Source: a virus
Taxonomy: Duplodnaviria; Heunggongvirae; Uroviricota; Caudoviricetes
IMG/VR virus record: IMGVR_UViG_2778261229_000002
Span: 1 to 34,933 of that record
Length of the DNA stretch: 34,933 nt
Reading direction: 5' to 3' (one strand)
Every line of letters starts with the position of its first letter. Position 1 is the first letter of the stretch. Below, in pieces: positions 19,392-34,742 of the stretch. The position numbers and the translations under genes were made by a program. The notes beneath the pieces are model-generated. The model searched no databases and was not told where the DNA came from. It worked only from the letters and a program-made list of their open reading frames with translations.

Positions 19392-21067
19392 TGTGATTGC
19401 CCACCCTGACCACTAACTGCATTCGCCATAGCTGACAAAACACTCGGATCCGAAGTTTTAGCTTCGCTTAGCGTCTTGGCACCCTGTGCCGCCGCCATCC
19501 CCATCGCCATCATTTGTTGCTGCTGTTGTTGCTGTGCCCGTTGCTGGCGAGCCTGCTCAACCTGTTCCTGCGGAACAATGACGGTTGGAGACACTCCGGA
19601 CATATCAGCGAATGCATCGATCGCCTGATCAACGTTGAGTTTGTCGAGAGCTTCTGGTTTCGCTTGCGCAAGTTGACCAATGAAGTTAACCGTGGACGCC
19701 AGACTGGACAGGCCGATAGACTTCTGCGCCTGAGCCATGACGGAAATGTATTCGACCTTCAGGGGCATGCCTTCCATCGCGTCAGGCGGTGGCGGCAGCA
19801 TGTTTTTGCGCACCATCATCGAGAAAGCGCGGTCAATGAGAGGATTAAGACATTCGTCGTTCAGACGCTCCAGAACCGGCCCCAACATCAGAAGTTTTTC
19901 TTCTTTCATTTCGATCACCGCTTCAACAGGCATCGAGCGGGTATTGATGTTCTGCAACATCATGAACAGATCGACAAAGTAGGCGCTGTTAATGATTTGA
20001 CGAGTGTCCTGAATGTCTGCCACCAAATCTGCTGTACTGGGGTTAACCAGATAAGCAGGCCTGAAGCCATCCTGACCAGTAATCTGATCGATATACGTGA
20101 TGTCGCCAGGAAGAAGGGAGGCGCGCTGATTCTTGAGGGAAGTCGGAGCAACCATCGGCGGATTGGTGGCTTTATCAATCAACTGCGACTTGCGCTTCTG
20201 GAGAAGCTGCAATGCCTTAACAGGTCCAAGCGCCAGCATACCCGGGCATGATGATCCATAAACATCTTCGCCGTTAACTTCCCAGCGCGGAGCCATAATT
20301 GGAAACTCATCGAATCCGGACTCACGCAACAACTTGTCGTTATCTCCACCAACCTCGTAATAAACCGATTTGAATGGCTTGTTCTTGCTATCCAGCTTCG
20401 ATGTATCGCGGTCAATGTTCGGGTAAACCGAATGCATCACTTCGATCCACTTCTCGTAGGTGCCGCTTTCCCACATGCTTTTTACGGATTTGCTGACGTT
20501 ATTTAGCCCGAACTCCTGAACAAGCTGACGAACAGTCATAGAGAACTTGCGAAAACAGGTGTCAACACTGCCACGAGGTGAGTTAGCCAGGTAGTAACTG
20601 CCTATCGGGAATGGCATTGTGCGAATGATGTCCTCGTCATCCTCCAGCACTGCCATTGCACCAGTGCTGTATGTGCCGAGGCTTCCGTATAACTGCGGAA
20701 GAGACTGGTAGAGATTCGACTTATTGAACATATCGTTCATGCGGTTCTGAACTGCCTCAAGCCACAACTTAACAGGGCCATAATCCATCATTTCAGGATC
20801 TGGCGTAGCCAGGCGAAACCACGGACGCGCGGGGCTTGTGATGCCTGACATCATGCCGCTGGCGAGAGTGCGCGCCGCCATAGTCCCGGTCGAATCAATA
20901 ATGCGTGTATTGCGCCGATCGTTACGGTTGGCCTCAGAAGTCAGAAAGCGGGAACCACGCGGGTTGATGTAATCACTCAACTCGCGCCAGTGCGGCTCGA
21001 ACGACTGACGCTCGCTTTCAAGTTGTGCGAACTGTTTGTTCAATCGCTCTTTAGTTGTTTCCGCCAT
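19388..21067 (-). CDS. Portal protein, 559 aa
   Basis: Size and position immediately downstream of the terminase genes; C-terminal Gln-rich tail (QQRAQQQQQQQMMAMGMAAAQG). Confidence 0.7.
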   Translation of the reverse strand: MAETTKERLNKQFAQLESERQSFEPHWRELSDYINPRGSRFLTSEANRNDRRNTRIIDSTGTMAARTLASGMMSGITSPARPWFRLATPDPEMMDYGPVKLWLEAVQNRMNDMFNKSNLYQSLPQLYGSLGTYSTGAMAVLEDDEDIIRTMPFPIGSYYLANSPRGSVDTCFRKFSMTVRQLVQEFGLNNVSKSVKSMWESGTYEKWIEVMHSVYPNIDRDTSKLDSKNKPFKSVYYEVGGDNDKLLRESGFDEFPIMAPRWEVNGEDVYGSSCPGMLALGPVKALQLLQKRKSQLIDKATNPPMVAPTSLKNQRASLLPGDITYIDQITGQDGFRPAYLVNPSTADLVADIQDTRQIINSAYFVDLFMMLQNINTRSMPVEAVIEMKEEKLLMLGPVLERLNDECLNPLIDRAFSMMVRKNMLPPPPDAMEGMPLKVEYISVMAQAQKSIGLSSLASTVNFIGQLAQAKPEALDKLNVDQAIDAFADMSGVSPTVIVPQEQVEQARQQRAQQQQQQQMMAMGMAAAQGAKTLSEAKTSDPSVLSAMANAVSGQGGQSQ

Positions 21068-21081
21068 TTCAATGACTCCGG

Positions 21082-21288
21082 TTACTGACCAAGCAGCGTT
21101 TTACCGCTGGTATTAGCGGTTGATGTGTCGCCCTGAGAACCGGTAAGCAGCGTAGAACTACGACCAGCAGCAGCGCGACGGCGACGTGTTTCTTCGTCGC
21201 GGGCATCAACAACGGCGGCATCCTGCTCCTGTGGTGCTGCCTGAACTTCTGGTGTTGCAGGCACTGATGGTGAGCTACCCATGCACAT
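21082..21288 (-). CDS. Hypothetical small protein, 68 aa, upstream of portal
   Basis: ORF track. Arg-rich and low complexity; could be non-coding. Confidence 0.3.
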   Translation of the reverse strand: MCMGSSPSVPATPEVQAAPQEQDAAVVDARDEETRRRRAAAGRSSTLLTGSQGDTSTANTSGKTLLGQ

Positions 21289-21356
21289 ATCAATGACTCC
21301 GTACGCAATTAAATTATTACCAATTTAACCACATATGATTTATTTATCGTAGAATG

Positions 21357-21394
21357 TTGACATTTAACGCGTGAATTATTACCTTTCAGGTAAC
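21357..21394 (+). promoter_or_regulatory. TTGACA box plus operator ATTACCTTTCAGGTAAC upstream of the tRNA insert
   Basis: TTGACA at 21357-21362; operator palindrome at 21378-21394. I could not find a convincing -10 hexamer at correct spacing. Confidence 0.35.
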
Positions 21395-21715
21395 CAAAGA
21401 GCTCATTCTGGTTACTAACCTGACTGGCTTGTCGTTAAATTAAACAGGTGGAGTGAGCTTTTATTTTGAGCAGTACGGCGTATGGCACATGCGCCGATAG
21501 CGGTCTGGATACGTTTAAGGGGCACCCTCCCTTGCTCGGGCAAACGAACCAGGTAGCCGGAATGTGTAAGTCGAGCGGTTTTATTCCGCGCACGGGGATT
21601 CACCATCCCGGCGATTCGGTGTGACGCCTCGGAAGAGACGAGGGTACAACGATGAGAGCATTTATGGAGCCGCGACAAAGTGTGGCGCCTTAACAGGCTA
21701 AGTGCTCTCAGCGTT

Positions 21716-21792
21716 GTGGCATTAGCTCAGTTAGACAGAGCAACCGCCTTCTAAGCGGTTGGTCGCAGGTTCGAATCCTGCATGCCACGCCA
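21716..21792 (+). tRNA. tRNA-Arg (anticodon UCU), 77 nt, argU-like
   Basis: Cloverleaf folded by hand: acceptor GTGGCAT/ATGCCAC, D-stem GCTC/GAGC, anticodon stem ACCGC/GCGGT with loop CTTCTAA, T-arm GCAGG-TTCGAAT-CCTGC, discriminator G and encoded CCA. Anticodon loop and T-arm are identical to E. coli argU as I recall it. Confidence 0.85.
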
Positions 21793-21836
21793 GAATCACG
21801 CCTAAGGACCGTGATGCCAGAAGTTCCAGGTGCTTG

Positions 21837-21878
21837 GCGGTGATGGTTTCCCTTGAAGGACTATCACCGCCCTTTTTA
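21837..21878 (+). terminator. Terminator downstream of the tRNA (GGCGGTGATGG ... CTATCACCGCC followed by CTTTTT)
   Basis: 11-bp stem with one mismatch and a 13-nt loop, followed by a T-run, about 45 nt after the tRNA 3' end. Confidence 0.5.
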
Positions 21879-22022
21879 CAGCAGGACGCCATTGCGATGA
21901 CTTCATGCTGTAAACCAGTACAGCCACGGAAGGCATAACTCATTGCTTCCAGTTCGCCCGGTTCGCCGGGCATTTTTTTAAGGTGTGAATCATGAAATAC
22001 GAATTTGATGGATTTTGATGTC

Positions 22023-22034
22023 GTGACATGTCAC
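22023..22034. repeat. 12-bp palindrome GTGACATGTCAC (copy 2 of 3)
   Basis: Exact copy; lies between the terminase large subunit stop and the tRNA insert. Confidence 0.6.
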
Positions 22035-22039
22035 AAACA

Positions 22040-22066
22040 GCCAGCCGATGAGCTGGCTTTGTTTTA
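22040..22066 (+). terminator. Hairpin GCCAGC-cgatga-GCTGGC followed by TTTGTTTTAT
   Basis: Immediately after palindrome copy 2. T-rich on the plus strand and partly T-rich on the minus strand, so possibly bidirectional. Confidence 0.4.
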
Positions 22067-22108
22067 TCCTCACCAGAGGATATCAGCAGCATTATCCCCT
22101 CCAGAGGA

Positions 22109-23584
22109 TTAAGCATAGGGATCGTAATCTGTAATGGCCTTGCCTTGCTGGTTCTGCTGACCGGGAATTCGCAGACGCTTCGACACCGGGAAAGCAAACG
22201 TCAGCAGTAGCGCATCGCCTTTACCCGGCGAACGCCCAAGCCGCTCCTTGATATCTTCCTTCGGTTCGATAACGATTTTACCGTCCACGCGAACTTTGTA
22301 CTCTGCCGCCGACAGGTCGTCCGCTGTTTCCTGGTCATCCAGCATGCCGCCCAGCCTCAGCCATGTCTTGCATGCATTGAACATCTCCCCACGCTTGTTA
22401 AGCATCTGCGGGTCAGTGGACGCACCGCCGAACGGAACAAGTTGCCATGTACGTCCCCAGCCATCACCGATTGACTTCAAACCGGTTCCGTAACCGAAGT
22501 CGATGAACACCGCGTCAGCCTGGTACTGGTCTTCAAAGTCAGCGATACGCTTCGCCATAATCAGATCGTCGGTGGTCTTGTTGCCAGTCCACAACACCTT
22601 ACTGTGCAGCCCCTGCCGCAGGTATATCACAGCGTCATCAACGCCGGAGTATGCCGGGTCAACGCCGATTATCACCGGAGCATGTGCCACCTGCGCAGCG
22701 GTTACCACCCGTTTCATTGCCTCGTCAGTAAGACCGGTAGGGATAAACTGCAATTCAGATGCATCAGGGAATATGCCACGCACACGGATTTTAACGAAGT
22801 CGCTGTCTTCCCCGTAGTCATCAACCCATTTCTGCAACTGATGTTTGTTAGTGCCTTCCACCGTCCGGCTGTCAATCTGCGCAGTTTTCCAGCGATGTTT
22901 ATATTTGCGGAAACATTCGCGGAAACGTCCGGTGTTACGTGTAGGGTTTCCGAACGCCACCCAGATAATCTCAGTGTCTTCGTCCGTAAGCGCACCCTCA
23001 GCAACTTCCCACACCAGATCCGCAATGTTCGACGCTTCATCGAATACCACGATGATGCGTTTGCGCTCGTTGTGTAGTCCGGCGAATGCCTCAGTGTTGT
23101 GCTCAGACCAGGGGATTGCGTCAGCTCGCCACCGCTTGTCGTGCCCAGGGTCATTGCTGTACATCGCGGTAGCGGTACAGGTAAACCAGTCTTTCGTGAT
23201 AGCAAGGTTCGACCACTTGATAATTTCCGGCCAGGTCTTCGTTCGTAGCTGGTTGTCGGTGTTGGCGGTCACCACGACCTTACAATCCTCGCAAGTGGAC
23301 ATGCCCCAGTTGATCAACATTGAGATGAATGCTGATTTACCAATACCGTGGCCCGAAGCACGTGCCAGCATAAGCGGCTGATAGCGCGTCTCGGGATTCT
23401 GCAGGTGATCACGTATCTCTCGGAACGCATCGGCCTGCCACTGACGTGGGCCGGTAGCATGTGCCAGTTCAGTCCCCTCTTCCCCCCACGGGAACGCATA
23501 GAGGGCATAGCCAAGCGGATCGTGAGTGAACCCTGCAATATCCTCGATCAACTGCTCTTCAGGAGATAACGCTGCATCTGTCAC
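22109..23584 (-). CDS. terL: Terminase large subunit, 491 aa
   Basis: Walker A-like motif (ARASGHGIGKS) in the N-terminal ATPase part; size and position after the small subunit. Confidence 0.8.
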   Translation of the reverse strand: MTDAALSPEEQLIEDIAGFTHDPLGYALYAFPWGEEGTELAHATGPRQWQADAFREIRDHLQNPETRYQPLMLARASGHGIGKSAFISMLINWGMSTCEDCKVVVTANTDNQLRTKTWPEIIKWSNLAITKDWFTCTATAMYSNDPGHDKRWRADAIPWSEHNTEAFAGLHNERKRIIVVFDEASNIADLVWEVAEGALTDEDTEIIWVAFGNPTRNTGRFRECFRKYKHRWKTAQIDSRTVEGTNKHQLQKWVDDYGEDSDFVKIRVRGIFPDASELQFIPTGLTDEAMKRVVTAAQVAHAPVIIGVDPAYSGVDDAVIYLRQGLHSKVLWTGNKTTDDLIMAKRIADFEDQYQADAVFIDFGYGTGLKSIGDGWGRTWQLVPFGGASTDPQMLNKRGEMFNACKTWLRLGGMLDDQETADDLSAAEYKVRVDGKIVIEPKEDIKERLGRSPGKGDALLLTFAFPVSKRLRIPGQQNQQGKAITDYDPYA

Positions 23585-24213
23585 TGATTGCCATCCTGAC
23601 GTTCTTTGAGTCGCTTCCTGGCTGCTGCTATGCGATCAGCAATTGTCACATTCACATTAACATCCAGACGTTCTTTGAACGCGTTAACGTCGACGTGCTT
23701 ACCGATGAGCTCGAGGTTTTTCACCTTGTCGGGCCATTTCACCTTCTTCAGGATATGCTCGACATCCTCAACAGAGAAATCCGCCTCGCCATTCTCTTTT
23801 TGCAGGGAAGCCTGGGTTGTCTTGATGGTAGCGATATCCATAGCACTGAGAGAGGTACGCCAGACCTTCGGCCATTCAGCGATCGGCTTCATCCCGCCGT
23901 CATCGTTCAGTATATCCAGCACGTCCATCTGGTCGATCTCCACCAGGCGCATGAGAACGTAATCAGCACTGACGCGCATTCGTTTGTTGCGCTCCTCCAT
24001 CAACTCGGCAATCCGTTTTTGAATGCGTTCATCGCGCATCATGACACTGGCTTTAACTGCCGCTGTATTTGGGGAGAATCCTGCGTTAATCGCTGCCTGA
24101 GTCTGGTTTTCAGGCGTTTTGATGTATGACTGGCAATAAGCCTCCTGCATTGCTGTTAGTGGCTTAAATTGCGTTGATTTGCGTTTATAGGTTTTAGGTT
24201 CAGCAGGCATCAT
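23581..24213 (-). CDS. terS: Terminase small subunit, about 210 aa
   Basis: ORF-track frame 23581..24291; I prefer the start at the MM pair (24208-24213), because the upstream 26 codons run through a tandem DNA repeat. HTH-like block QEAYCQSYIKTPENQTQAAINAGFSPNTAAVKASVMM is typical of P27-type small terminases. Stop overlaps the terL start. Confidence 0.65.
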   Translation of the reverse strand: MMPAEPKTYKRKSTQFKPLTAMQEAYCQSYIKTPENQTQAAINAGFSPNTAAVKASVMMRDERIQKRIAELMEERNKRMRVSADYVLMRLVEIDQMDVLDILNDDGGMKPIAEWPKVWRTSLSAMDIATIKTTQASLQKENGEADFSVEDVEHILKKVKWPDKVKNLELIGKHVDVNAFKERLDVNVNVTIADRIAAARKRLKERQDGNQ

Positions 24214-24220
24214 AACCACC

Positions 24221-24252
24221 GTGGTAATAGTTACCGTTGTGGTAATAGTACC
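24221..24252. repeat. Tandem 15-bp direct repeat GTGGTAATAGTTACC / GTGGTAATAGTACC, each an internal palindrome
   Basis: Two adjacent copies separated by GTT, immediately upstream of the terS start. The half-sites GGTAA/TTACC are the operator half-sites in inverted arrangement. Confidence 0.5.
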
Positions 24253-24282
24253 ATGCAAAATAAAGCCGCCATAGTTGGCGGC
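24253..24282 (-). terminator. Intrinsic terminator on the minus strand (GCCGCC-aactat-GGCGGC followed by TTTATTTTG)
   Basis: Hairpin at 24265-24282 with a T-rich tract on the minus strand, between the 115-aa gene and terS. Confidence 0.5.
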
Positions 24283-24323
24283 AGTATTCAAAACCCGTCA
24301 AATTCATCATGCATAATCTACTC

Positions 24324-24335
24324 GTGACATGTCAC
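24324..24335. repeat. 12-bp palindrome GTGACATGTCAC (copy 3 of 3)
   Basis: Exact copy overlapping the stop codon of the 24332..24679 gene. Confidence 0.6.
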
Positions 24336-24679
24336 ACTATTAATTTCGTTTCATGCCAGCCTTTAGTCACCCAGCATTGCGAGTCACCATTACACGGGCA
24401 TGAATTAACTGGAACTCTCTCGCCGCACTTACCGCAACGTTTTCTGCTGATCGATTTTATACGCCCGCGCACACGTGCATCATCCTGGCGGATCAGCAGC
24501 GCGATGTACTCGGCCATTTCATAGGGATCGCGACCAGGGCGCCGGGCGGCGCAGTTCCGCGCTAGCATTTCCTGCTCCTGCTTATCCAGCACCAGTTCAA
24601 TTTTGCGCTCACCGGCGGCGGACTGCCGAGCGCGCTGCGCGGCTTTGCGTTCTGCGGGGGATTTAGCCACGAATCGCAC
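24332..24679 (-). CDS. Hypothetical protein with C-terminal Cys-rich (zinc-ribbon-like) motif, 115 aa; candidate late-gene regulator
   Basis: C-terminus RKRCGKCGERVPVNSCPCNGDSQCW. Last gene before a terminator and the terminase genes, which is the positional analogue of a lambdoid late regulator. No homology asserted. Confidence 0.45.
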   Translation of the reverse strand: MRFVAKSPAERKAAQRARQSAAGERKIELVLDKQEQEMLARNCAARRPGRDPYEMAEYIALLIRQDDARVRGRIKSISRKRCGKCGERVPVNSCPCNGDSQCWVTKGWHETKLIV

Positions 24680-24785
24680 TCCACGCCAGATTGATTAATG
24701 ACTCCCAGGTAATATAAACCCGGATACCAGCAGCCAGGCCGAAACCAATCACCATGGCATAAAGCAGAGCGTTGCACTTGTTCAT
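24663..24785 (-). CDS. Possible small hydrophobic peptide, 40 aa
   Basis: ATG overlaps the TGA of the upstream gene (ATGA junction); peptide MNKCNALLYAMVIGFGLAAGIRVYITWESLINLAWSAIRG has one predicted TM helix. May be non-coding. Confidence 0.25.
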   Translation of the reverse strand: MNKCNALLYAMVIGFGLAAGIRVYITWESLINLAWSAIRG

Positions 24786-25588
24786 CACTTCACCTCCTGC
24801 GGCGGTTCTGGTAGCGGCATCCAGTGTGACGGTTTCCACGACGCACCAGGAATTATCCACCCATCATTAGCGTCAGGATGACCCGGGATGTAAGTAGCCC
24901 ATTTCATTCGCCAGTCACCTTTCCTGTCAAACTCCACGGCAACAAGAACGGCTGTTTTGGTATTCGGCATTCGCTCACTACAGCTTATCCAACCATCCGG
25001 AGTCACCGGAAGCGAGAACGGCAGCACATCTCTGTGAACAAGTTTTTGCTGTGACAGGTTATCCAGAACTTTCTGTACTGCTGCATCACCGAATACACCA
25101 AGCGCATCTGCCATAACTCCTACAACCTGATAAGCCTCAGCGCATACCGTGGATAAACCATCCGGAATTACCGGAGAGTTGCCGGGTTCTTTAATGTGCA
25201 AGCGAGGCTCACCATCTTTTGGTTCAGGCCACTGGCGCTCCATGTTGATCTTCAATTTATCTTCCATAGCAGCGGTAATTTCAGCATCGCTGATGCCAGC
25301 ACGGCGCTGTGCATCCCACAACAGGAAATGCATATCAGCCCACTCGCTGAGATCGTCTGGTTCGGCTGCGGCTTCCAGAGCCTCTTTTGAGAGGTGTTTC
25401 AGTGGACCAATGGGGCCAACGCAGCCAAATGTGGAGTCAGACCATTTGGCATGCTCGTGGCGAATCAGTTCGCGTTCCAGTGATGCCAGTGCAATTCGTG
25501 CCAGTTCCATTTGTTCGCCACGAGTAAGCCCGTTTTCAAGCGGATTTTTAATGAACAATTCAATACGTTCTTTGGTAATAGTGGTCAT
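24785..25588 (-). CDS. Two-domain nin-region protein: N-terminal nucleotide pyrophosphohydrolase-like (DUF550-like) and C-terminal Trp-rich (DUF551-like) domain
   Basis: Recalled family resemblance of HEHAKWSDSTFG...MHFLLWDAQRRAGISDAEITAAMEDKLKIN and of the C-terminal W-rich tail ending HWMPLPEPP. Memory-based. Confidence 0.45.
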   Translation of the reverse strand: MTTITKERIELFIKNPLENGLTRGEQMELARIALASLERELIRHEHAKWSDSTFGCVGPIGPLKHLSKEALEAAAEPDDLSEWADMHFLLWDAQRRAGISDAEITAAMEDKLKINMERQWPEPKDGEPRLHIKEPGNSPVIPDGLSTVCAEAYQVVGVMADALGVFGDAAVQKVLDNLSQQKLVHRDVLPFSLPVTPDGWISCSERMPNTKTAVLVAVEFDRKGDWRMKWATYIPGHPDANDGWIIPGASWKPSHWMPLPEPPQEVK

Positions 25589-25598
25589 TTGTTAGTCC

Positions 25599-26354
25599 TT
25601 AAACTGCTAGTTGCAATTGCATTTCAAAGCGGTCGCGTTGTTCACAATACGCAAGAGAACCAGGGCTATTGTGTGCCTCAATCCGTTCTACCATTAATGC
25701 TGCGCGTGTCTCTTTACTTGCAGGTGCATAAGCCCCAGACCAGGCTTTATCAATACCGATGTTTCGAGCGACGTTCGTACTATCTGCGCTGGCTAAGGGT
25801 AATTTTGTGAATATCAGCGGATTTAACATGCGCAATCCATGTAGTTTCGTAACCGGCTGACCATGCCCATCAACAATGTGACGAATCAGGTCTTTCATTC
25901 TGGCTACCGCAAGAGTTGGGCGCTTTACGTCATAGTCGCCACAACTACCGATAGCCACTCGCGGAAACTCATTGCACAAATGAATAAATCGCGCGTCACT
26001 TTCATTCATGTGCCACACTGGAACGCCAGCTAGTTTTCCGTGAGGCCACTCATTCAGAAGCGCATCATTTTCCTCCTCTCCGCCATCAATAATATCCGGG
26101 ATAATGGCAAAATCGAATCCTGGGTGATTCTTCCAGCGAGCAACAAACTCGTAGTAATCGCTCCAGTCGATTTTGTTTTTGCCAGCTGCTTTCCAGGCGG
26201 TGAATGCACCGTTGTCCAGCGCGAACGACTGACAGTATTCAGCCGCGAGATTGATCTGGCCTGAATGCGCAAAACTGATAAACGCATGTCGCCCTTTCCA
26301 TGCTCTCATTGCGCACGTATCAGGAGTAATAGGCCCACCGTGGTAGTGAATCAT
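25599..26354 (-). CDS. TGT-like (queuine tRNA-ribosyltransferase-fold) protein; candidate DpdA-type 7-deazaguanine DNA transglycosylase
   Basis: ORF-track frame 25599..26396; I prefer the ATG at 26354 (MIHYHGGPIT...), which overlaps the upstream stop and follows AAGGAGAG. Block FALDNGAFTAWKAG resembles the TGT catalytic LTDSGGFQVFSLG block; later blocks (FAIIPDIIDGG, RVAIGSCGDY) are roughly co-linear with TGT. Confidence 0.45.
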   Translation of the reverse strand: MIHYHGGPITPDTCAMRAWKGRHAFISFAHSGQINLAAEYCQSFALDNGAFTAWKAAGKNKIDWSDYYEFVARWKNHPGFDFAIIPDIIDGGEEENDALLNEWPHGKLAGVPVWHMNESDARFIHLCNEFPRVAIGSCGDYDVKRPTLAVARMKDLIRHIVDGHGQPVTKLHGLRMLNPLIFTKLPLASADSTNVARNIGIDKAWSGAYAPASKETRAALMVERIEAHNSPGSLAYCEQRDRFEMQLQLAV

Positions 26355-26355
26355 C

Positions 26356-26715
26356 TCACTCTCCTTTGATGCGAATGCCAGTAGCGCGGATTGCATCGAT
26401 GACTTCAGAAACTTTGTATGCCATTACCGTTTGGTAATCATCGTGAAAATCTGTTCGATGAAGCATGCTGCTACGTTCCGGGAGCAGTATTTCCCGCGCT
26501 TCCAGCTCTGCAATGCGTTTGCTTTGGGCTTCTCGTTCATCCAGCAGCGCCAGCACAATGTGTGGCGTTATCAAGGACTCAAATTCGGCAACAGCTTGCT
26601 CACCTCGCTTGTAATTCTTAATCCCACCTAAATCTTTCGCGTTCTGTGCCGCCTCACGCAGCGCCAGTGTGTCGATGTCGATGTCGATGTCGATGTCGAT
26701 GTCGATGTTGCTCAT
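26356..26715 (-). CDS. Ea22-like coiled-coil protein with N-terminal (Ile-Asp)6 repeat, about 119 aa
   Basis: ORF-track frame 26356..26739; I prefer the start MSNIDIDIDIDIDID at 26715, overlapping the upstream stop. Segment PHIVLALLDEREAQSKRIAELEARE resembles lambdoid Ead/Ea22-like proteins. Confidence 0.45.
   Translation of the reverse strand: MSNIDIDIDIDIDIDTLALREAAQNAKDLGGIKNYKRGEQAVAEFESLITPHIVLALLDEREAQSKRIAELEAREILLPERSSMLHRTDFHDDYQTVMAYKVSEVIDAIRATGIRIKGE
26671..26706. repeat. Perfect hexanucleotide tandem repeat (GTCGAT)6, in-frame, inside a CDS
   Basis: Six exact copies followed by a degenerate seventh (GTTGCT). Encodes IDIDIDIDIDID on the minus strand. Confidence 0.9.
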
Positions 26716-26945
26716 TGTGCCTCCTCGATTTCGTCCCATTCCACCCAGGCATTCTCTCCATCAGCATCGATTTCACCTTTGTGACCGCATTTGGAACAAA
26801 CGGCCTCATCACCCGCCCACAAAGAATCTTTGGTTACCGACCATCCTGTTACCCTGGCTTTGCCGTGCTGGCACTTAGGGCAATCATCAAGCCATTCGAC
26901 TTCGACCGTTGAAGGACCAAATCCATGTTCAGTTCGGATGCTCAT
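26712..26945 (-). CDS. Small zinc-ribbon protein, about 77 aa
   Basis: ORF-track frame 26712..26978; I prefer the internal ATG at 26945, overlapping the upstream stop. Two Cys pairs: CPKCQHG and CSKCGHKG. Confidence 0.45.
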   Translation of the reverse strand: MSIRTEHGFGPSTVEVEWLDDCPKCQHGKARVTGWSVTKDSLWAGDEAVCSKCGHKGEIDADGENAWVEWDEIEEAQ

Positions 26946-27592
26946 GACTGAACTCCTTTGCGAATCTGTTCCGCCCATTCTTCAAGGGATTTCTCCGCAT
27001 ATTCACCGGACAGGCCATCAATCGGATGCGATTCATTAGCTAACTCTTCTTTTGCTGACAGAATCATGCGTGTAACGTCGAAAACTTCAGCCAAAGGCTT
27101 ATTGATAAATCCGTGATTGAACGCAGCAGCAAGACGGCTGGCGGTATAGTTAATCCCCTCGTTGCGTGCTTCCGCACGAATTTCAGCCAGAAAAGCATCG
27201 GTAGCTGGGGTTTCGATATCGTTAATTTCAGGAAGAATCTCTTCCCATGTGGCGATATCGCCATTCAAATGCCATCCGGCAATTCCACTGGAGTTATCCG
27301 CAACACTGCGAACGGCTTCAATAGTTTCGAGCATTACCGCATTCTCCGCCGCAAGCGCCGAAAACTTCTCGTGTGCCAACTTAACAGATGCATCAGCCTG
27401 CTTAATTGACTCAATCGCTTTCTGCTGGTCTTCGGCCAGCGCATTAGCACGCACCAGTTGCACTTCCAGTTGCGTTGCCAAATCGCTGATCAGCTTTGCC
27501 ACACTGCGCATATCAACGGCACCACATTCTGCTTTCAGTTCCGAAGCCATCTCATGCCCGGCGGCAACTAACCCTTTGATATTACTTTCCAT
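26942..27592 (-). CDS. Hypothetical coiled-coil protein, 216 aa (nin/Ea-type region)
   Basis: ORF track; Ala/Glu/Leu-rich heptad-like sequence. No family assigned. Confidence 0.45.
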   Translation of the reverse strand: MESNIKGLVAAGHEMASELKAECGAVDMRSVAKLISDLATQLEVQLVRANALAEDQQKAIESIKQADASVKLAHEKFSALAAENAVMLETIEAVRSVADNSSGIAGWHLNGDIATWEEILPEINDIETPATDAFLAEIRAEARNEGINYTASRLAAAFNHGFINKPLAEVFDVTRMILSAKEELANESHPIDGLSGEYAEKSLEEWAEQIRKGVQS

Positions 27593-27653
27593 CTTTACCC
27601 TCGCTTATCCACATAACTTATTGATTACATTGATAACTAAAAAGATCGTCGAT

Positions 27654-28001
27654 TCAGAACTCTTCGATGTTCCAGCCACCACCTGCTTTCTTTGGCTTAA
27701 CCGTTACCCCGATGATTCGGAACGGATACTGATCTGCGGCGACTTTGGTTTTCACTCTGGCGTCATCGGTCCAGAATCCCCCTTTCACTTCGTGCAGTTC
27801 CATCTCGCCGGTGGCGAGCTTCACAGCAAAATCTGGCGTATAGAACGTGTTGTCAGCTAACCGCAGCTTGATACCCTCAAATCGATACCAGACGATTTCT
27901 CCTGCACGTTTACGCAGCTCAAGGTGCTGGCAATACGCAGATTCTGTTTTGTTCATCTGGCCTGTTTTGAGTCGACCAAGAGCCTGTATCTGTTTTCTCA
28001 T
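27654..28001 (-). CDS. Small PD-(D/E)XK-type nuclease-like protein (DUF1064-like), 115 aa
   Basis: Motif spacing FYTPDFAV ... ELHEVKG fits a PD-(D/E)xK core. Family name is recalled, not verified. Confidence 0.4.
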   Translation of the reverse strand: MRKQIQALGRLKTGQMNKTESAYCQHLELRKRAGEIVWYRFEGIKLRLADNTFYTPDFAVKLATGEMELHEVKGGFWTDDARVKTKVAADQYPFRIIGVTVKPKKAGGGWNIEEF

Positions 28002-28065
28002 GATTTACCCCTGAGGTAATTAAAAACCACATAAGACACGAAATCAATAGATCTTAGAACATTTT

Positions 28066-28082
28066 ATTACCTAGCAGGTAAT
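28066..28082. promoter_or_regulatory. Operator-like palindrome ATTACCTAGCAGGTAAT
   Basis: Perfect half-sites; located between the P-like gene and the downstream nin-region genes. Confidence 0.5.
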
Positions 28083-28118
28083 TATCAAGACGTAAAAAAA
28101 TGCGCTATCGCGCTGGTA

Positions 28119-28919
28119 TTACTTGATAAATCCTGCCGCCTTTCCCCGCCTGTATTCCTCCATCAGCCACTGCGCCGGTGTTATTCCCCCCAGGGTAGCG
28201 GCGTTAGGCATACACCCGAAACTTCGCCCTGGTGGATGGTAAACGTCTCTCCCTGTGTCCGGAGGCGTACTCATGGGTTCTGGCTTTGCCTGTATGCTGA
28301 TCACCGGATCGGGTATCTGCTGTCCGGAAGCCACCTTTTTCGCCCAATCATCAAGCAGCCTGCGCGCGTGTTTCTCAACCTCAATCTCGCTAAGCTGGCG
28401 CTGATACATTGCACGGCGGGTATCACATACGACCCAGTACATAACCGGATGCCGCCACGGGAATCTTTCGGGACCACCAGGATATAAACTTTTTTCCTTG
28501 CTGTACCGGTGAAACTCCGCCATCACATCGTCAATGGTGACGCCAAGAACCATCTTGCTGTCTTTGCACCACTTGATAAATTGCCCTGGCGACGGCCAGA
28601 ACGGAGATTCACTGGCGCGGGCGTGGCGCATACCAGCAGAAACCTGTTCACGGGTTCGGATCCCACCTTCGGCAAACGCAGCAATCCACTGCTGTTTTGC
28701 AGCAACTTCCTGCTCTGGCGTCTTCAGGTTGGTTACCACTGCCGCCGGAAACAGCTGTTTCAGCTGTTTGAAAAGGGCATCAACAAGCCTCTCTGCTGAC
28801 ATGTTCACCACATTGTCATTGTTGACGTACTGATGCTCATAACCTGACATGCGAGAAAGGGCTTCTCCGTCACGGTTTTGTATCGCGGTAAAAACGTTGT
28901 TCACAAGAAATCCTCCCAC
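28119..28919 (-). CDS. Replication protein P-like (helicase loader), 266 aa
   Basis: Block QQWIAAFAEGGIRTREQVSAGMRHARASESPFWPSPGQFIKWCKD aligns closely with lambda P as I recall it (RRQWVLAFRENGITTMEQVNAGMRVARRQNRPFLPSPGQFVAWCRE). Confidence 0.7.
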   Translation of the reverse strand: MGGFLVNNVFTAIQNRDGEALSRMSGYEHQYVNNDNVVNMSAERLVDALFKQLKQLFPAAVVTNLKTPEQEVAAKQQWIAAFAEGGIRTREQVSAGMRHARASESPFWPSPGQFIKWCKDSKMVLGVTIDDVMAEFHRYSKEKSLYPGGPERFPWRHPVMYWVVCDTRRAMYQRQLSEIEVEKHARRLLDDWAKKVASGQQIPDPVISIQAKPEPMSTPPDTGRDVYHPPGRSFGCMPNAATLGGITPAQWLMEEYRRGKAAGFIK

Positions 28920-29716
28920 GCTTCAGGGCTGTTCCAGTGCGGAACGTTGTTATCAGGTAATGTTGATTGCTTCTGTCTGCTAATCTGCAGCCGCCTTGCT
29001 AGCTTCTGCTCCCACTGTGCCTGATGGTATGCCTTACCCTCAGCCATCCAGTAAATTCTGAACTCTGCAAGTTCCTGTGCCGTTGGCAGACTGTCCAGGT
29101 AGATCCCCTGCAATGAGCTTTTCCGAAGAAAGTCATCTGATGGCTGCCATTGTTCATGCATGACAAATTTGCCTAATTGCCCTGGCCCACCAGGAGGAAC
29201 AAAGTTATTCATCACGGCGTTGTTTGCGCCGGGGTCATGATGCACAGAATCCCCGTTTTTTGTCCTGCTCTCCCTCTCTTGGTTAAATGACTGGTTATAT
29301 GACTGGTTCTGGATCCCGTTTTTGGGATCATTCAACATCCCGTTTTTGGGATCATTCAACATCCCGTTTTTGGGTATATTCCCGTTTTCGGTAACATTAC
29401 CGTTTTCGGGTTCATTGCCCCCCTCTCGGTTGCCTTTAATGTTCCCGTTTTTGGTTATATTAAGAGAGAAAACCCGCACTCTTTTTGTCGCTCCCTTTCT
29501 CTCCCCGGTATCTGAAATAAGCCCCATTTTCATGAGCGATATAAGTCCGGCCTGCACGGTTTTTTTATTCAGGCAAGTGTCTTTAACGAGGCGTTCTATG
29601 CTGGGGTAGCAGAGGTTATATTCATCGGCTCTGTCAGCCATCGAGAGCAGTATGAGCTTTAATGACGAGCTACCTGGATCTGTCTCCCAGGCCCAATCTG
29701 TTGCATGTCTGCTCAT
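28901..29716 (-). CDS. Replication initiator (O-like) with internal origin iterons, 271 aa
   Basis: Position upstream of the P-like gene; DNA iterons inside the coding region produce the repetitive Asn/Gly-rich segment (NGMLNDPKNGMLNDPKNG). Confidence 0.6.
   Translation of the reverse strand: MSRHATDWAWETDPGSSSLKLILLSMADRADEYNLCYPSIERLVKDTCLNKKTVQAGLISLMKMGLISDTGERKGATKRVRVFSLNITKNGNIKGNREGGNEPENGNVTENGNIPKNGMLNDPKNGMLNDPKNGIQNQSYNQSFNQERESRTKNGDSVHHDPGANNAVMNNFVPPGGPGQLGKFVMHEQWQPSDDFLRKSSLQGIYLDSLPTAQELAEFRIYWMAEGKAYHQAQWEQKLARRLQISRQKQSTLPDNNVPHWNSPEAWEDFL
29314..29461. repeat. Replication-origin iteron array, about six copies of CCCGTTTTTGGG(A/T)T-like units, including an exact 24-bp tandem duplication
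   Basis: TCCCGTTTTTGGGATCATTCAACA at 29314-29337 and again at 29338-29361, followed by degenerate copies up to about 29461. Lies inside the O-like gene, as in lambda ori. Confidence 0.7.
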
Positions 29717-29731
29717 GATTAATCTCCGCTA

Positions 29732-29932
29732 TCAGCTTGAATGTTGTGGGGAGGAATTAATCATGATCTGCTTAATCTCTGCCCTGATACGACGGTTTGA
29801 TTCCATGGTGCACTCAACACAGTGTCCGTTGTAAACCCAGCGTTCACTGTCATGTCCGTGCTTACATGTTTTTCCGGTGTAGTAGCGTTTAAGTCCGCGC
29901 TTTGCGGCATCAATACGTGTAATGATTTCCAT
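29732..29932 (-). CDS. Small Cys/His-rich protein, about 66 aa
   Basis: ORF-track frame 29732..29995; I prefer the internal ATG at 29932 (MEIITRIDAAKRG...). Contains CKHGH and CVEC. Confidence 0.4.
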   Translation of the reverse strand: MEIITRIDAAKRGLKRYYTGKTCKHGHDSERWVYNGHCVECTMESNRRIRAEIKQIMINSSPQHSS

Positions 29933-30011
29933 GGTAAGCCCTGTTATTAGTATTGGGATTACGGTTATTTTGTGCTGACACAAAAAAAAGATCAACCATA
30001 TTTGGTTTTTT

Positions 30012-30028
30012 ATTACCTTTGAGGTACG
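30012..30028. promoter_or_regulatory. Operator-like site ATTACCTTTGAGGTACG (degenerate right half)
   Basis: Motif family member located between the Cro-like gene terminator and the downstream gene. Confidence 0.35.
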
Positions 30029-30032
30029 AATA

Positions 30033-30060
30033 GATATGAAAAGACCGCCGGATGGCGGTC
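30033..30060 (-). terminator. Intrinsic terminator after the Cro/CII-like gene (GACCGCC-atcc-GGCGGTC followed by TTTTCATATCT on the minus strand)
   Basis: Perfect 7-bp GC-rich stem at 30043-30060 with a T-tract on the minus strand. Positional analogue of lambda tR1. Confidence 0.5.
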
Positions 30061-30082
30061 TACAGAGGGTTGTGGCTGGATA

Positions 30083-30313
30083 TCATGAGTAGAAGAAGTA
30101 TGCCAGTTCTGCTTTTGAGCGCAGCCATTGTCTTGATTTACAGGCTTTAAAAAGCCCATCCATCAATACCTTACCTGGCATTTTGCGCTTACCTGTTAAG
30201 TGAGTCTGGATATAGTGACTCGTCGTTCCGGCTTCCTGTGCGAAGGCTTCACGCTCATCCGGAGTAAGTGCAAGCCAGTGCTTTTTGAAATCGAAATGTC
30301 CGTTATCGCTCAT
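30083..30313 (-). CDS. Small Cro/CII-like HTH regulator, 76 aa
   Basis: Divergent from the repressor gene across an operator-bearing intergenic region; short basic protein with HTH-like segment (AFAQEAGTTSHYIQTHLTGKRK). Confidence 0.5.
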   Translation of the reverse strand: MSDNGHFDFKKHWLALTPDEREAFAQEAGTTSHYIQTHLTGKRKMPGKVLMDGLFKACKSRQWLRSKAELAYFFYS

Positions 30314-30345
30314 AGCTATTGCCTGATATTTATTTCAGATAATAA

Positions 30346-30413
30346 ATATTCACCTATAAGGTAACAAAAATCAAGGATAGTTACCCATGAGGTGCATTTA
30401 CCTGTTGGGTAAT
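30346..30413. promoter_or_regulatory. OR-like divergent control region: three operator sites and a minus-strand promoter TTGATT-17 bp-GAATAT
   Basis: Operators TTCACCTATAAGGTAAC (30349-30365), AGTTACCCATGAGGTGC (30380-30396, degenerate) and TTTACCTGTTGGGTAAT (30397-30413). Promoter read on the minus strand from plus coordinates 30346-30374, with an operator in the spacer. Confidence 0.5.
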
Positions 30414-30467
30414 ATTGCTTTAAATTGAATCATCTTCTGATTCAGATATGAGGCGATTTTCCAGAAA

Positions 30468-31052
30468 ATGAAAAGTATCCAGGACGTCCGCAGGCAAAAT
30501 CTCAACGACTTGATCGACCGTGAATTCAATGGTGTTCAGACGCGGATGGCTGAAAAACTTGGAACTCAGGCAAATCTGGTAAACCGCTGGGCTCTTGGCA
30601 AGAAGGTTATCGGCGACCAGGTTGCGCGAAAAATTGAAGCTGCCGCCAATAAACCCCGTAACTGGCTTGATATCGATCGCTCGCTTTCTCAGGAAGGTTT
30701 TCAGCCTGTCGGACCAAGCGACATTGGTCAACTGGCGGCTCACAACCTGGAACGCTGGATGAGCGAAAGCCGCGACCTTTCAACGCAGGGAAAACTTCAC
30801 CGCGCATCCGGCGTCGCCCAGGTAACAATCAGCCGCCTGTTAAACAATGAGGTCAGCGTTTCCATTTCCACCCTGGAGAATGTTGCATCCGCATTTGGGC
30901 GTCACGGATATGAATTACTGATTCACCCGCACGACCCCGCGACTATCAACTATGACCGCTCGCGCTACGCATTGTTACCTGAAACAGAGAAGGCAAAGAT
31001 CGAAAGTTACATTGAATTTGTCATCAACCAGAACGAAAAAAACAAACAATAA
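30468..31052 (+). CDS. Phage repressor with two tandem XRE-type HTH domains and no S24 peptidase domain, 194 aa
   Basis: Two HTH-like segments (QTRMAEKLGTQANLVNRWALGKK and LHRASGVAQVTISRLLNNEVSVS). No Ala-Gly/Ser-Lys autocleavage module visible. The opposite-strand ORF 30420..30743 is judged spurious. Confidence 0.65.
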   Translation: MKSIQDVRRQNLNDLIDREFNGVQTRMAEKLGTQANLVNRWALGKKVIGDQVARKIEAAANKPRNWLDIDRSLSQEGFQPVGPSDIGQLAAHNLERWMSESRDLSTQGKLHRASGVAQVTISRLLNNEVSVSISTLENVASAFGRHGYELLIHPHDPATINYDRSRYALLPETEKAKIESYIEFVINQNEKNKQ

Positions 31053-31073
31053 AATCATATTTTTCAGTAAGTA

Positions 31074-31097
31074 AGCCGCCTTATGGCGGCTTTTTTA
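31074..31097 (+). terminator. Intrinsic terminator after the repressor gene (AGCCGCC-ttat-GGCGGCT followed by TTTTTT)
   Basis: Perfect 7-bp stem with 4-nt loop and six T, 22 bp after the repressor stop. Confidence 0.7.
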
Positions 31098-31108
31098 TTG
31101 CCTATTCG

Positions 31109-31187
31109 ATTACCTAACGGGTAATTTTTTTAACTCATATCTATTGACATCAAACCAGATACGCATAATTATTACCTCAACGGTAAC
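31109..31187 (+). promoter_or_regulatory. OL/PL-like region: operators ATTACCTAACGGGTAAT and ATTACCTCAACGGTAAC flanking a TTGACA box
   Basis: Operators at 31109-31125 and 31171-31187; TTGACA at 31144-31149 with an A/T-rich -10 candidate (CATAAT at 31164-31169). Reads into the exo/recT operon. Confidence 0.5.
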
Positions 31188-31205
31188 AGACCGAGGTAAC
31201 AAGTT

Positions 31206-31358
31206 ATGCAGTGGAAAATCATCAACGGTTGGTACTGCGTTACTGCATGCGGATTCATGAGCTGGAAGTTCCGCACCTTACAGGAAGGCATTAAGTGGGC
31301 TTTCGTCAGCAAAGAAGCTCGCGATGTAGCCAACGATAACGAGATATGGGAGGGCTGA
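31206..31358 (+). CDS. Possible small protein, 50 aa, first gene of the early leftward operon
   Basis: Hand-translated MQWKIINGWYCVTACGFMSWKFRTLQEGIKWAFVSKEARDVANDNEIWEG. Below the ORF-track cutoff; no strong RBS. Confidence 0.3.
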   Translation: MQWKIINGWYCVTACGFMSWKFRTLQEGIKWAFVSKEARDVANDNEIWEG

Positions 31359-31360
31359 TA

Positions 31361-31660
31361 ATGAACGTTAATCAGCAGAAAAATCTTCAAAAAATCATGC
31401 TGGCATTCGACAAGGACTACCGCCTGTCAGAACAGCTATATGACCGACAAGTTGAACTGATTGAGAGCATCCGACTTCATCAACTGTCCTCAACTTTTGA
31501 CGTTGTAACAGGCAAAGGCGTTCGTCAGGAAGTACTGGAGGCTGCTAAAGACAGCCCTGAGTTCGAAGAACTGATGGATGCCTATCGGCGAGAGGCAATG
31601 GCAATTATCGCCCGCTGGGATCTGGCGGATCAGCTTGATGGACAGAGGGACGCGGCATGA
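31361..31660 (+). CDS. Hypothetical protein, 99 aa
   Basis: ORF-track frame 31346..31660; I prefer the ATG at 31361 preceded by GGGAGGG. Stop overlaps the start of the exonuclease gene. Confidence 0.5.
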   Translation: MNVNQQKNLQKIMLAFDKDYRLSEQLYDRQVELIESIRLHQLSSTFDVVTGKGVRQEVLEAAKDSPEFEELMDAYRREAMAIIARWDLADQLDGQRDAA

Positions 31661-32478
31661 AACCGGGAATTTATTTCGACATCAGCAACGAAGACTACCA
31701 CGCCGGTGACGGCGTGAGTAAGTCGCAACTGGACATGGTTGCCAAGAATCCGGCGCTTCTTAAATGGGTCCAGGCAGCACCAGAAGACGAAGAGAAAAAG
31801 TCTGCACTGGATATTGGAACCGCATTGCACTGTCTGCTTCTGGAGCCTGGAGAATTCGACAAACGCTTCATTGTTTCACCGAAGTTCGATCGTCGGACGA
31901 AACAAGGTAAAGCTGACGAAGAAGCATTTCTTCGTGATGTAGCGGATATGGGGATTACGGTACTTGATGCCGAGCAGTGGCGGAAACTGGAGCTGATGCG
32001 TGATAGCGCAATGGCTCACCCGGCGGCACGCTGGATGCTGGAAGCACCTGGTTACTGCGAAGCATCAATGTACTGGAATGATGAAGAGACTGGTGAGTTG
32101 TGCCGCATTCGTCCAGACAAATGGCTGAACGAGCACAACGTGATCGTCGACGTGAAAAAGGTTGCAGATATGGACCGTTTTGCACGCCACATCGAGGAAT
32201 TCCGCTACCACGTGCAGGACGCAATGTACCGCGAAGGTGCAATGAGGGTTACTGGTCAGCCGCATGGTTTTTTCTTTCTTGCCGTGAGCGAAAGCATTGA
32301 TTGTGGTCGGTATCCGGTACGCGTGTTCGAGCTGGATGCGCCGGATGTCGATGCCGGGCACGCTCTGTTCCGCCGGGATCTGAATACCTATCACGAATGC
32401 CGCATCAACGATGAGTGGGGCGGAGTGGAAATTATTAAACGCCCTGACTGGGCACGTAAACAGGATATATACGTATGA
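31657..32478 (+). CDS. PD-(D/E)XK recombination exonuclease (YqaJ/lambda-Exo-like)
   Basis: Motif RIRPDKW ... VIVDVKKVADM fits a PD-(D/E)xK core; gene is translationally coupled to the downstream RecT. Confidence 0.65.
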   Translation: MKPGIYFDISNEDYHAGDGVSKSQLDMVAKNPALLKWVQAAPEDEEKKSALDIGTALHCLLLEPGEFDKRFIVSPKFDRRTKQGKADEEAFLRDVADMGITVLDAEQWRKLELMRDSAMAHPAARWMLEAPGYCEASMYWNDEETGELCRIRPDKWLNEHNVIVDVKKVADMDRFARHIEEFRYHVQDAMYREGAMRVTGQPHGFFFLAVSESIDCGRYPVRVFELDAPDVDAGHALFRRDLNTYHECRINDEWGGVEIIKRPDWARKQDIYV

Positions 32479-33392: not shown

Positions 33393-33441
33393 CCACCACC
33401 GCGGCGCCACGCGCGCCGCACTGCAACCAAGAGAGGTATTT

Positions 33442-33690
33442 ATGAAAGGTGCATTAGGTAAGAAGGAACTCCTGGCGGTGGTGCCACTGTCATGGAGCAC
33501 TATCGACCGCATGGAGCGCGCAGGGGAATTTCCTAAACGCTGGTATATCACCGATAAACGCTGCGCATGGAACCGTGATGAAGTTGAGCGTTGGCTTGAT
33601 GAACGTCAGGCAGCAAGCCCGGCAGAGTTCCAGGGTAAAAAGCCTCCTGTTCAGCAACGTGTATATCGTCCTGTGAGCAACGCTGCATGA
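33442..33690 (+). CDS. AlpA-like small DNA-binding regulator, 82 aa
   Basis: Short protein with HTH-like segment (LLAVVPLSWSTIDRMERAGEFPKRWYI) resembling the AlpA/excisionase-type family. Memory-based. Confidence 0.45.
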   Translation: MKGALGKKELLAVVPLSWSTIDRMERAGEFPKRWYITDKRCAWNRDEVERWLDERQAASPAEFQGKKPPVQQRVYRPVSNAA

Positions 33691-33799
33691 GTGCGCTGCT
33701 AAGGCACTGGAGCAAATGGTCAGGATGGTACTTATTCCTGGCCTCTGTTTCAGCATGGCTTTATCTGCTGGCATTAATTTTCAGAGAGGGTTGGATTAA

Positions 33800-34099
33800 G
33801 TGAGAAAGTTAAGCCGACTTGAAAAATATCACATGAATAAGGTTTCAATGCGCAGCCCTTCAAAGGTTGTTGCCGTTACTCCTGCGGCGATAGAGATCGA
33901 AAAACGCGCGATTGAAAGAGAGAAAAAAGGGCAGTTCCGCATTGCCGCCCACCTTTGGCTTCAGTGTATGGATGTTGCTTCTGGTGATGTTGAGCGTGCA
34001 AGGATCGCGGTTCGCAGGGACCAATGTATCACAAAAGGTAACTGCCTTCGCCGTGGCGACTATAGCGGCATAGGATGTTGTGGGGTGGTTTATGAATAA
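33800..34099 (+). CDS. Hypothetical protein, 88-99 aa, Cys-rich C-terminus
   Basis: ORF track starts at a GTG at 33800; an ATG at 33833 is an alternative start. No family assigned. Confidence 0.4.
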   Translation: MRKLSRLEKYHMNKVSMRSPSKVVAVTPAAIEIEKRAIEREKKGQFRIAAHLWLQCMDVASGDVERARIAVRRDQCITKGNCLRRGDYSGIGCCGVVYE

Positions 34100-34742
34100 G
34101 AAATACACACTAATCTATGCAGATCCACCCTGGGCATACCGGGACAAAGCCGCAGATGGTAATCGCGGTGCCGGTTTTAAATATCCGGTTATGAGTGTGC
34201 TGGATATCTGCCGCCTTCCTGTGTGGGATTTGACCGCTGAAAACTGTCTGTTGGCCATGTGGTGGGTGCCAACACAACCACTCGAAGCACTAAAAGTTGT
34301 TGAAGCCTGGGGATTCCGTCTGATGACCATGAAGGGCTTCACGTGGATAAAATGTGGTAGTCGACAACCAGATAAACTGGTTATGGGTATGGGACACATG
34401 ACTCGCGCCAATACTGAAGATTGCCTGTTTGCGGTAAAGGGAAAACTACCTACGCGCATTAATGCAGGGATCGTTCAGTCATTTACCGCACCGCGGCTTG
34501 AGCATTCAAGAAAACCAGATATCGTTCGTGAAAAACTTGTGCAATTGTTAGGCGATGTTTCTCGCATTGAACTGTTCGCCCGCCAATCGTCTCATGGCTT
34601 CGATGTTTGGGGTAATCAGTGCGAAGACCCGGCAGTGCAACTACACCCTGGATACGCGTTGGATATTGCCGGATTAACAAATGCATTCAGCAATGCTCCG
34701 CTGTCACCAACAGACAATCAGGGGCGGGAGCGTGCAGCATGA
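34092..34742 (+). CDS. MT-A70-family N6-adenine DNA methyltransferase
   Basis: ORF-track frame 34080..34742; I prefer the ATG at 34092 preceded by GGGGTGG. Signature LIYADPPWAY (DPPW motif) near the N-terminus. Confidence 0.75.
   Translation: MNKKYTLIYADPPWAYRDKAADGNRGAGFKYPVMSVLDICRLPVWDLTAENCLLAMWWVPTQPLEALKVVEAWGFRLMTMKGFTWIKCGSRQPDKLVMGMGHMTRANTEDCLFAVKGKLPTRINAGIVQSFTAPRLEHSRKPDIVREKLVQLLGDVSRIELFARQSSHGFDVWGNQCEDPAVQLHPGYALDIAGLTNAFSNAPLSPTDNQGRERAA

Follow-up and report, generated by a model that had tools for sequence, protein, structure and literature searches.

A compact DpdA-like protein without a zinc site encoded by a temperate phiV10-like phage of Escherichia coli

Introduction

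The closest described counterparts of the gene treated in this report are the DpdA proteins of phages, DNA-guanine transglycosylase homologues within the superfamily of the tRNA-guanine transglycosylases (TGTs). Supplementary Data 1 of Hutinet et al. (2019) contains 76 phages that carry DpdA without preQ0/G+ genes, including SPN3UB, SfI, HK106 and 7-11 (PMC6884629). A dependence on host preQ0 was already proposed for this "singleton" group in the same study (PMC6884629). The gene in question, referred to as dpdA-like, is located at 25599..26354 on the minus strand of a 34,933-nucleotide stretch of viral DNA (IMG/VR record IMGVR_UViG_2778261229_000002; the whole stretch is called the window) and encodes a stand-alone protein of 251 residues. 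The window covers almost the whole genome of a temperate E. coli podophage of the phiV10/epsilon15-like type (Uetakevirus).

The protein belongs to the singleton DpdA group of temperate enterobacterial phages. It is 92% identical to YP_007011024 of Salmonella phage SPN3UB, 67% identical to YP_009147480 of Enterobacteria phage SfI and about 35% identical to YP_007151699 of HK106 and YP_004782407 of Salmonella phage 7-11. This phage shares with the group the host group (Gammaproteobacteria) and a predicted need for precursors that are made by the host or imported. No essential difference exists; the genome around this copy is of the Uetakevirus type (phiV10-like). The finding, though correct, is not new and reproduces the prediction published in 2019 for this protein group.

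Among the better characterized proteins, DpdA1 of the Queuovirinae CAjan and 9g is nearest. PHROG 887 and the motifs D-[SN]-G-A-F, KLH and S-x-D-S are common to these proteins and the dpdA-like protein, and the zinc cluster and a Pfam TGT match are absent from both. Sequence identity to CAjan DpdA is about 21–25%. The dpdA-like protein is 55 residues shorter, mostly due to a shorter C-terminal region and N-terminus. In CAjan and 9g, the genes folE, queD, queE, queC (or gat-queC) and yhhQ are located beside dpdA and 25–32% of the guanines are modified, whereas this phage has none of those genes. Deletion of dpdA from CAjan abolishes 2'-deoxy-preQ0 (dPreQ0) in the phage DNA (PMC6884629).

Other members of the superfamily are more distant. 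DpdA of the bacterial Dpd system (Salmonella Montevideo, PDB entry 7UI4) requires DpdB and ATP (PMC10164549). In structural alignments the dpdA-like protein is 14–15% identical to it, but has neither the zinc site nor the large Ins8 insertion and comprises 251 instead of 413 residues. The locus also differs from the Dpd system in its context, which is that of a prophage early operon without dpdB or dpdC partners and without a match to any PADLOC family at E-values up to 1. Unlike bacterial TGT and the archaeal enzyme ArcTGT, the protein has no CxCxxC...H zinc site, no match to Pfam PF01702, no N-terminal β-sheet lid and no C-terminal tRNA-binding parts.

Results and discussion

Sequence relationship to phage DpdA

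The dpdA-like protein is almost certainly homologous to phage DpdA. It matches PHROG 887 ("queuine tRNA-ribosyltransferase") with an E-value of 5.8e-102, and CAjan DpdA matches the same PHROG with an E-value of 8.2e-96. Alignment of a 51-sequence family profile with CAjan DpdA by hhalign gives a probability of 98.9% (E 1.5e-17, 175 columns). The relationship is also found by pairwise BLASTP, with E-values of 7e-9 for CAjan DpdA and 8e-32 for DpdA of Salmonella phage 7-11 (35% identity). At the level of sequence, the PHROG 887 E-value and the more than 7,700 clusters (90%) of homologues indicate that the similarity is far beyond chance. The original prediction of a DpdA-type, TGT-like homologue agrees with these results. 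They support the assignment of the gene product, a compact protein with no zinc site, to the phage DpdA family of DNA-guanine transglycosylase homologues within the TGT superfamily.

The TGT-like motif comprises residues 44–59 and reads FALDNGAFTAWKAAGK. The block around the catalytic Asp that had been pointed out beforehand is present; its ending in ...WKAG was a trivial slip of that earlier reading. The predicted absence of the zinc-binding Cys cluster is borne out as well: Cys236 is the sole cysteine after the putative nucleophile Asp191, and it is not conserved.

Several searches weigh against membership in the TGT superfamily. Scans of the protein against Pfam, NCBIfam and PADLOC gave no match. 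The Pfam TGT family (PF01702) was not matched by the dpdA-like protein at E-values up to 1, nor by any of 93 family members at E-values up to 10. Hence, of the profile searches proposed for TGT and DpdA, the one for phage DpdA (PHROG 887) succeeded and the one for Pfam TGT did not. Sequence searches of the PDB with phmmer and two family profiles returned chance matches only. The family profiles gave no significant hhalign match to E. coli Tgt, and none to an alignment of 81 gammaproteobacterial TGTs built from a profile scan of genome contigs. Against the latter alignment, two segments below the threshold pair as expected (DNGAF opposite DSGGF and AIGS opposite AVGG), and a forced global hhalign of the family against canonical TGT was uninformative. 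CAjan DpdA likewise has neither a Pfam TGT match nor the Cys cluster. Therefore, both absences are traits of phage DpdA and no argument against membership.

Gene model

The longest open reading frame extends over 25599..26396 (minus strand) and corresponds to 265 residues counting from its first ATG. The shorter version of 251 residues, starting with the ATG at 26354, is correct, for three reasons. A Shine-Dalgarno sequence, AAGGAG, read from the sequence at 26366..26361 (minus strand), is located six bases ahead of this ATG. The stop codon TGA of the upstream ead/Ea22-like gene (26358..26356, minus strand) ends one base upstream of it. All homologues begin with MIHYHGG, and RefSeq contains the identical protein of 251 residues (WP_000582229.1), labelled "hypothetical protein". 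The coordinates of the original prediction are thereby confirmed. The version of 265 residues was rejected: it has no support from homologues, it would overlap with the ead gene and the Shine-Dalgarno sequence belongs to the ATG at 26354. The ead/Ea22-like and dpdA-like genes are tightly coupled in a single operon. A promoter of the dpdA-like gene's own was considered and discarded, as promoter-like matches are no commoner here than in shuffled sequence.

Putative active site

The active site was analyzed in an alignment of 93 sequences from three subfamilies, namely the clade of the dpdA-like protein, an enterobacterial clade of about 276 residues with phage Opt-719 among its members, and the clade of CAjan. 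Asp47, Ala50, His115, Glu118, Gly136, His172, Pro186, Asp191, Ser192 and Arg217 are invariant, and Gly49 and Phe51 are conserved in at least 90% of the sequences.

In bacterial DpdA the general acid/base is Asp95, the gate is Phe99, the base is read by His181 and the nucleophile is Asp256, located after the last strand (PMC10164549). Mutation of Asp95 or Asp256 abolishes activity (PMC10164549). The corresponding motif of TGT is DSGGFQ, and its nucleophile is Asp280. Order and spacing of Asp47/Phe51, His115, Gly136 and Asp191 fit this layout of Asp95/Phe99, His181, the Gly-Gly pair and Asp256. The codons are on the minus strand. Residues F44-ALDNGA-F51 are encoded by 26202..26225 and include Asp47 (26214-26216) as putative general acid/base and Phe51 as putative gate. 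The codon of the putative catalytic nucleophile Asp191 (SADS motif) is located at 25782..25784. His115 (PVWH motif, 26010..26012) is a candidate counterpart of His181 by motif order only. These roles are mapped from bacterial DpdA and TGT by motif order and fold, with no significant direct alignment, and are to be read as putative. Within the phage proteins, hhalign pairs Asp47 with the Asp of LDSGAF and Asp191 with the Asp of SCDSS in CAjan DpdA.

The base-binding aspartate (Asp130 in bacterial DpdA, Asp156 in TGT) is ambiguous and may correspond to either Asp87 or Asp90. Asp87 of the IPD motif (codon 26094..26096, minus strand) is a candidate of uncertain assignment, conserved in 55 of 55 and 50 of 51 clade sequences. 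Both hhalign and MAFFT place the Asp of CAjan DpdA opposite position 90, which varies between Asp, Gly and Glu, and not opposite Asp87. This ambiguity counts against the function proposed below.

Predicted fold

A first AlphaFold2 model, calculated with close homologues, has a predicted local distance difference test score (pLDDT) of 74. The second model, based on the 93-sequence alignment, reaches a pLDDT of 85.7 and a predicted template-modelling score of 0.85. It displays the alternating β/α barrel of triose-phosphate isomerase (TIM barrel). The fold search was run twice. The best solved matches are bacterial DpdA (7ui4; Z 14.9 and 14.7) and Cap10 (9ntn; 14.6 and 14.9), followed by ArcTGT (1iq8; 13.6 and 13.5), bacterial TGT (3unt; 13.2 and 13.6) and QTRT2 (6fv5; 12.0 and 11.9). 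Thus, five of five chains of the TGT superfamily appear in the top ten of both runs. The best generic TIM barrel has values of 12.4 and 13.8, so that Cap10 and bacterial DpdA are only narrowly above generic barrels, with a margin of about 1 Z unit. This margin speaks against a firm assignment by fold. The structure prediction that had been suggested therefore gave the expected barrel and the expected neighbours but little separation. With a generic TIM barrel at 13.8, the fold search agrees with the assignment but does not decide it alone. A Foldseek search of viral models retrieved phage entries named "queuine tRNA-ribosyltransferase" (E 1e-9 to 1e-5).

Given the small margin, the protein could be an unrelated enzyme with a TIM barrel that acts in sugar or phosphate metabolism and has TGT-like motifs by coincidence. 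This is very unlikely, the least probable of the alternatives considered, in view of the hhalign match (E 1.5e-17) and a PHROG that is common to a genetically proven DpdA, itself without a Pfam match. A putative preQ0 transporter linked to the gene in relatives (see below) also argues against it.

The match to Cap10 raises another alternative, an enzyme that conjugates a 7-deazaguanine derivative to protein and not to DNA. However, the sequence homology is to phage DpdA, and identity to Cap10 is 9% in the structural alignment. Cap10 belongs to the type IV cyclic oligonucleotide-based antiphage signalling system. In the window, tblastn with CAjan QueC and family scans of the tested open reading frames found no Cap9/QueC-like gene and no gene of a cGAS/DncV-like nucleotidyltransferase. 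There is no such family among the neighbours and no PADLOC match. A Cap10-like function is highly unlikely.

Proposed supply of the 7-deazaguanine base

FolE, QueD, QueE, QueC and the YhhQ-like transporter of CAjan, used as tblastn queries, have no match in the window. Pfam and PHROG scans assigned the other tested open reading frames to replication, recombination, regulatory, packaging or virion families or to nothing, and no family of the preQ0 pathway was among them. It had been correctly anticipated that the window contains no preQ0 biosynthesis genes. Furthermore, tblastn found none of folE, queD, queE and queC in about 100 related loci.

In seven loci, a gene for a VUT/YhhQ-type transporter (PF02592) of about 158 residues adjoins the dpdA-like gene on either side (L074 9405-10001, L094 3022-3498, L004 5531-6007, L095, L096, L102 and L103). 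The dpdA-like gene of L074 is 89% identical to the window protein. The other loci are from the virulent Drexlerviridae phage vB_EcoD_Opt-719, the Flyfo siphovirus Tbat1_6 and four IMG/VR contigs. The linked transporter is related to the putative preQ0 transporter of CAjan. Because the two genes recur side by side, the stand-alone clade is linked to free 7-deazaguanine bases, and the pair looks like a salvage-and-insert module.

According to published experiments, supply of the base by the host is feasible. DpdA of 9g alone, expressed in E. coli, yields dPreQ0 at 0.03–0.3% of plasmid guanine (PMC6884629). DpdA2 of VH7D alone inserts preQ1 of the host. Mutants of CAjan in folE and queC retain about 12-fold lower preQ0, which originates from host metabolism.

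Proposed function

It is fairly probable that the dpdA-like protein inserts a 7-deazaguanine into the phage DNA from host precursors. From the gene order, the gene would be co-transcribed with the replication genes, just ahead of the terminase genes, and the protein would be made during phage DNA replication. By homology, the enzyme would flip a guanine out of double-stranded phage DNA and the reaction intermediate would be resolved with a free 7-deazaguanine base. Because the phage is devoid of folE, queD, queE and queC, this base would have to come from the queuosine pathway of E. coli or from uptake via the host YhhQ. Most likely it would be preQ0, with preQ1 as a possibility. The expected outcome is a low-level, probably motif-specific modification of the dPreQ0 type in virion DNA, which could blunt some restriction or DNA-sensing defences. 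A role of the gene in counter-defence may be envisaged on this basis.

Published work also weighs against this proposal. The CAjan mutants that depended on preQ0 from the host lost their resistance to restriction enzymes, and therefore a supply by the host may not protect. Phage 7-11, the only gammaproteobacterial singleton tested, contains 50 residues of dADG (2'-deoxy-7-amido-7-deazaguanosine) per 10^6 nucleotides and no dPreQ0 (PMC6884629). No modification was present in mycobacteriophage Orion (PMC6884629). Finally, Hutinet et al. posed the question of a functional divergence of the singletons (PMC6884629). Owing to the sensitivity of the CAjan mutants, the trace of dADG in 7-11 and the question of divergence, a strong protective role is disfavoured.

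Some of these observations fit an alternative in which TGT-like catalysis was kept and the function diverged. The protein might use another substrate (tRNA or another nucleic acid) or a different base, or act mainly as a DNA glycosylase serving as an anti-defence or exclusion factor, rather than in bulk modification of the phage genome. Besides the trace of dADG in 7-11 and its absence from Orion, singleton DpdAs cluster apart from pathway-linked DpdAs (PMC6884629). Position 87/90 differs from the CAjan group, and the gene is part of a mosaic accessory region of the ea/nin type; the closest sequenced phages do not have it. On the other hand, both catalytic Asp residues and the motifs around them do not vary between this protein and the validated DNA enzyme, and the zinc subdomain and the C-terminal domains of tRNA TGTs are missing as in the DNA-acting CAjan DpdA. 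The linkage to a putative preQ0 transporter in relatives points to the use of a free 7-deazaguanine base, and a fusion to a Dam methyltransferase (see below) points to DNA as the target. A diverged function is thus unlikely.

Within the preferred reading of an enzyme that modifies phage DNA, stand-alone DpdA may be more than a weak copy of the Queuovirinae enzyme. It could be an enzyme driven by salvage, which takes preQ0 or preQ1 from host synthesis or import and writes sparse, sequence-specific 7-deazaguanine marks on the phage DNA and possibly on the chromosome of the lysogen. Such an enzyme would account for the YhhQ-type transporter genes that repeatedly accompany the gene in relatives. 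This proposal is unlikely. If true, many E. coli and Salmonella strains would contain a type of DNA base modification that has been overlooked.

If the protein is active, common prophages of E. coli and Salmonella, including Shiga toxin-converting and lambda-like ones, would place 7-deazaguanine in DNA from host metabolites alone. Such bases bear on restriction evasion, on sensitivity to the newly described 7-deazaguanine-DNA glycosylases and on artefacts in sequencing and cloning. The practical value is modest and consists in a corrected annotation of WP_000582229.1. The gene is an abundant and easily testable member of the singleton DpdAs.

Distribution of the dpdA-like gene

The protein-position index lists the exact protein of 251 residues in 4,753 blocks, and the full-length gene is present in 201 of 5,426 complete E. 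coli genomes (about 4%). It is found in two settings. In lambda-like prophages at the gal-bio site, the gene is located in the ea region, with exo/bet on one side and int on the other. In prophages of the Uetakevirus type, it lies between the replication and terminase genes. Sequenced Uetakeviruses do not have the gene. The two prophage settings and this absence show that the gene behaves as a mobile accessory cassette.

Two cluster representatives are fusions. In P0234, a D12-class Dam methyltransferase (PF02086) is fused to the dpdA-like domain, and in P0157 the dpdA-like domain is fused to DUF551. Both may be real or may be artefacts of assembly or gene calling. The Dam fusion is consistent with DNA as the target.

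Genomic neighbourhood

Genes of the operon were assigned from the list of open reading frames and from Pfam and PHROG scans. All are on the minus strand. In order, the operon contains an O/DnaT-like (28901..29716) and a P-like replication gene (28119..28919), followed by a DUF1064 gene, two small genes and the Ead/Ea22-like gene (26356..26739; PF13935, E 5.9e-8) directly upstream of the dpdA-like gene. Downstream, a fusion of PF04447 (DUF550, dATP/dGTP pyrophosphohydrolase) and DUF551 (24785..25588; Pfam E 1.2e-41 and 2.3e-21) is followed by further small genes and by the genes of the small (23581..24291) and the large terminase subunit (22109..23584). Over positions 20000-34933 the closest sequenced relative is phage phiv142-3 (86% coverage, 97% identity). 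Its variable region contains an Eaa protein and no dpdA.

An Ead/Ea22-like gene directly precedes the dpdA-like gene at all eight listed genomic places and in 36 of 101 loci. The pyrophosphohydrolase-like neighbour named in the original prediction is present (PF04447, E 1.2e-41). As a functional partner of the dpdA-like protein it was rejected, since only 22 of 100 loci have a PF04447 gene directly downstream; it is a common resident of the variable region. PF04447 is named for the dGTP/dATP pyrophosphohydrolase activity of a phage with 2-aminoadenine (a Z-genome) (PMC12884076). The present phage, by contrast, has no purZ.

The MT-A70 DNA adenine methyltransferase that had been noticed elsewhere in the window is located at 34080..34742 on the plus strand (PF05063, E 1.4e-22; PHROG 359, "DNA methyltransferase"; PADLOC MTase_II). 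It belongs to the divergent early operon, as a DNA-modification gene in its own right. The protein is full length in the window (220 residues). At the corresponding place of phiv142-3 (L002 37299-37577), a "putative adenine methylase" is only 279 bp long and may be truncated or differently called.

A gene for tRNA-Arg(UCU) is located at 21716-21792, between the portal and terminase genes. In phiv142-3, a tRNA-Arg(tct) occupies the equivalent position.

Two repeats are present within genes of the operon. The hexamer TGTCGA occurs in 6.5 perfect copies at 26670-26708, within the ead/Ea22-like gene. It is in frame and encodes an (Ile-Asp)n run (MSNIDIDIDIDIDID...) near the N-terminus of the protein; its copy number could be variable. 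In the second repeat, at 29313-29416 inside the O/DnaT-like gene, a 24-bp unit is present in 2.6 perfect copies, and degenerate units of 18 bp come after it. The repeat encodes a repeated PKNGMLND peptide, and the repeats probably are the iterons of the origin.
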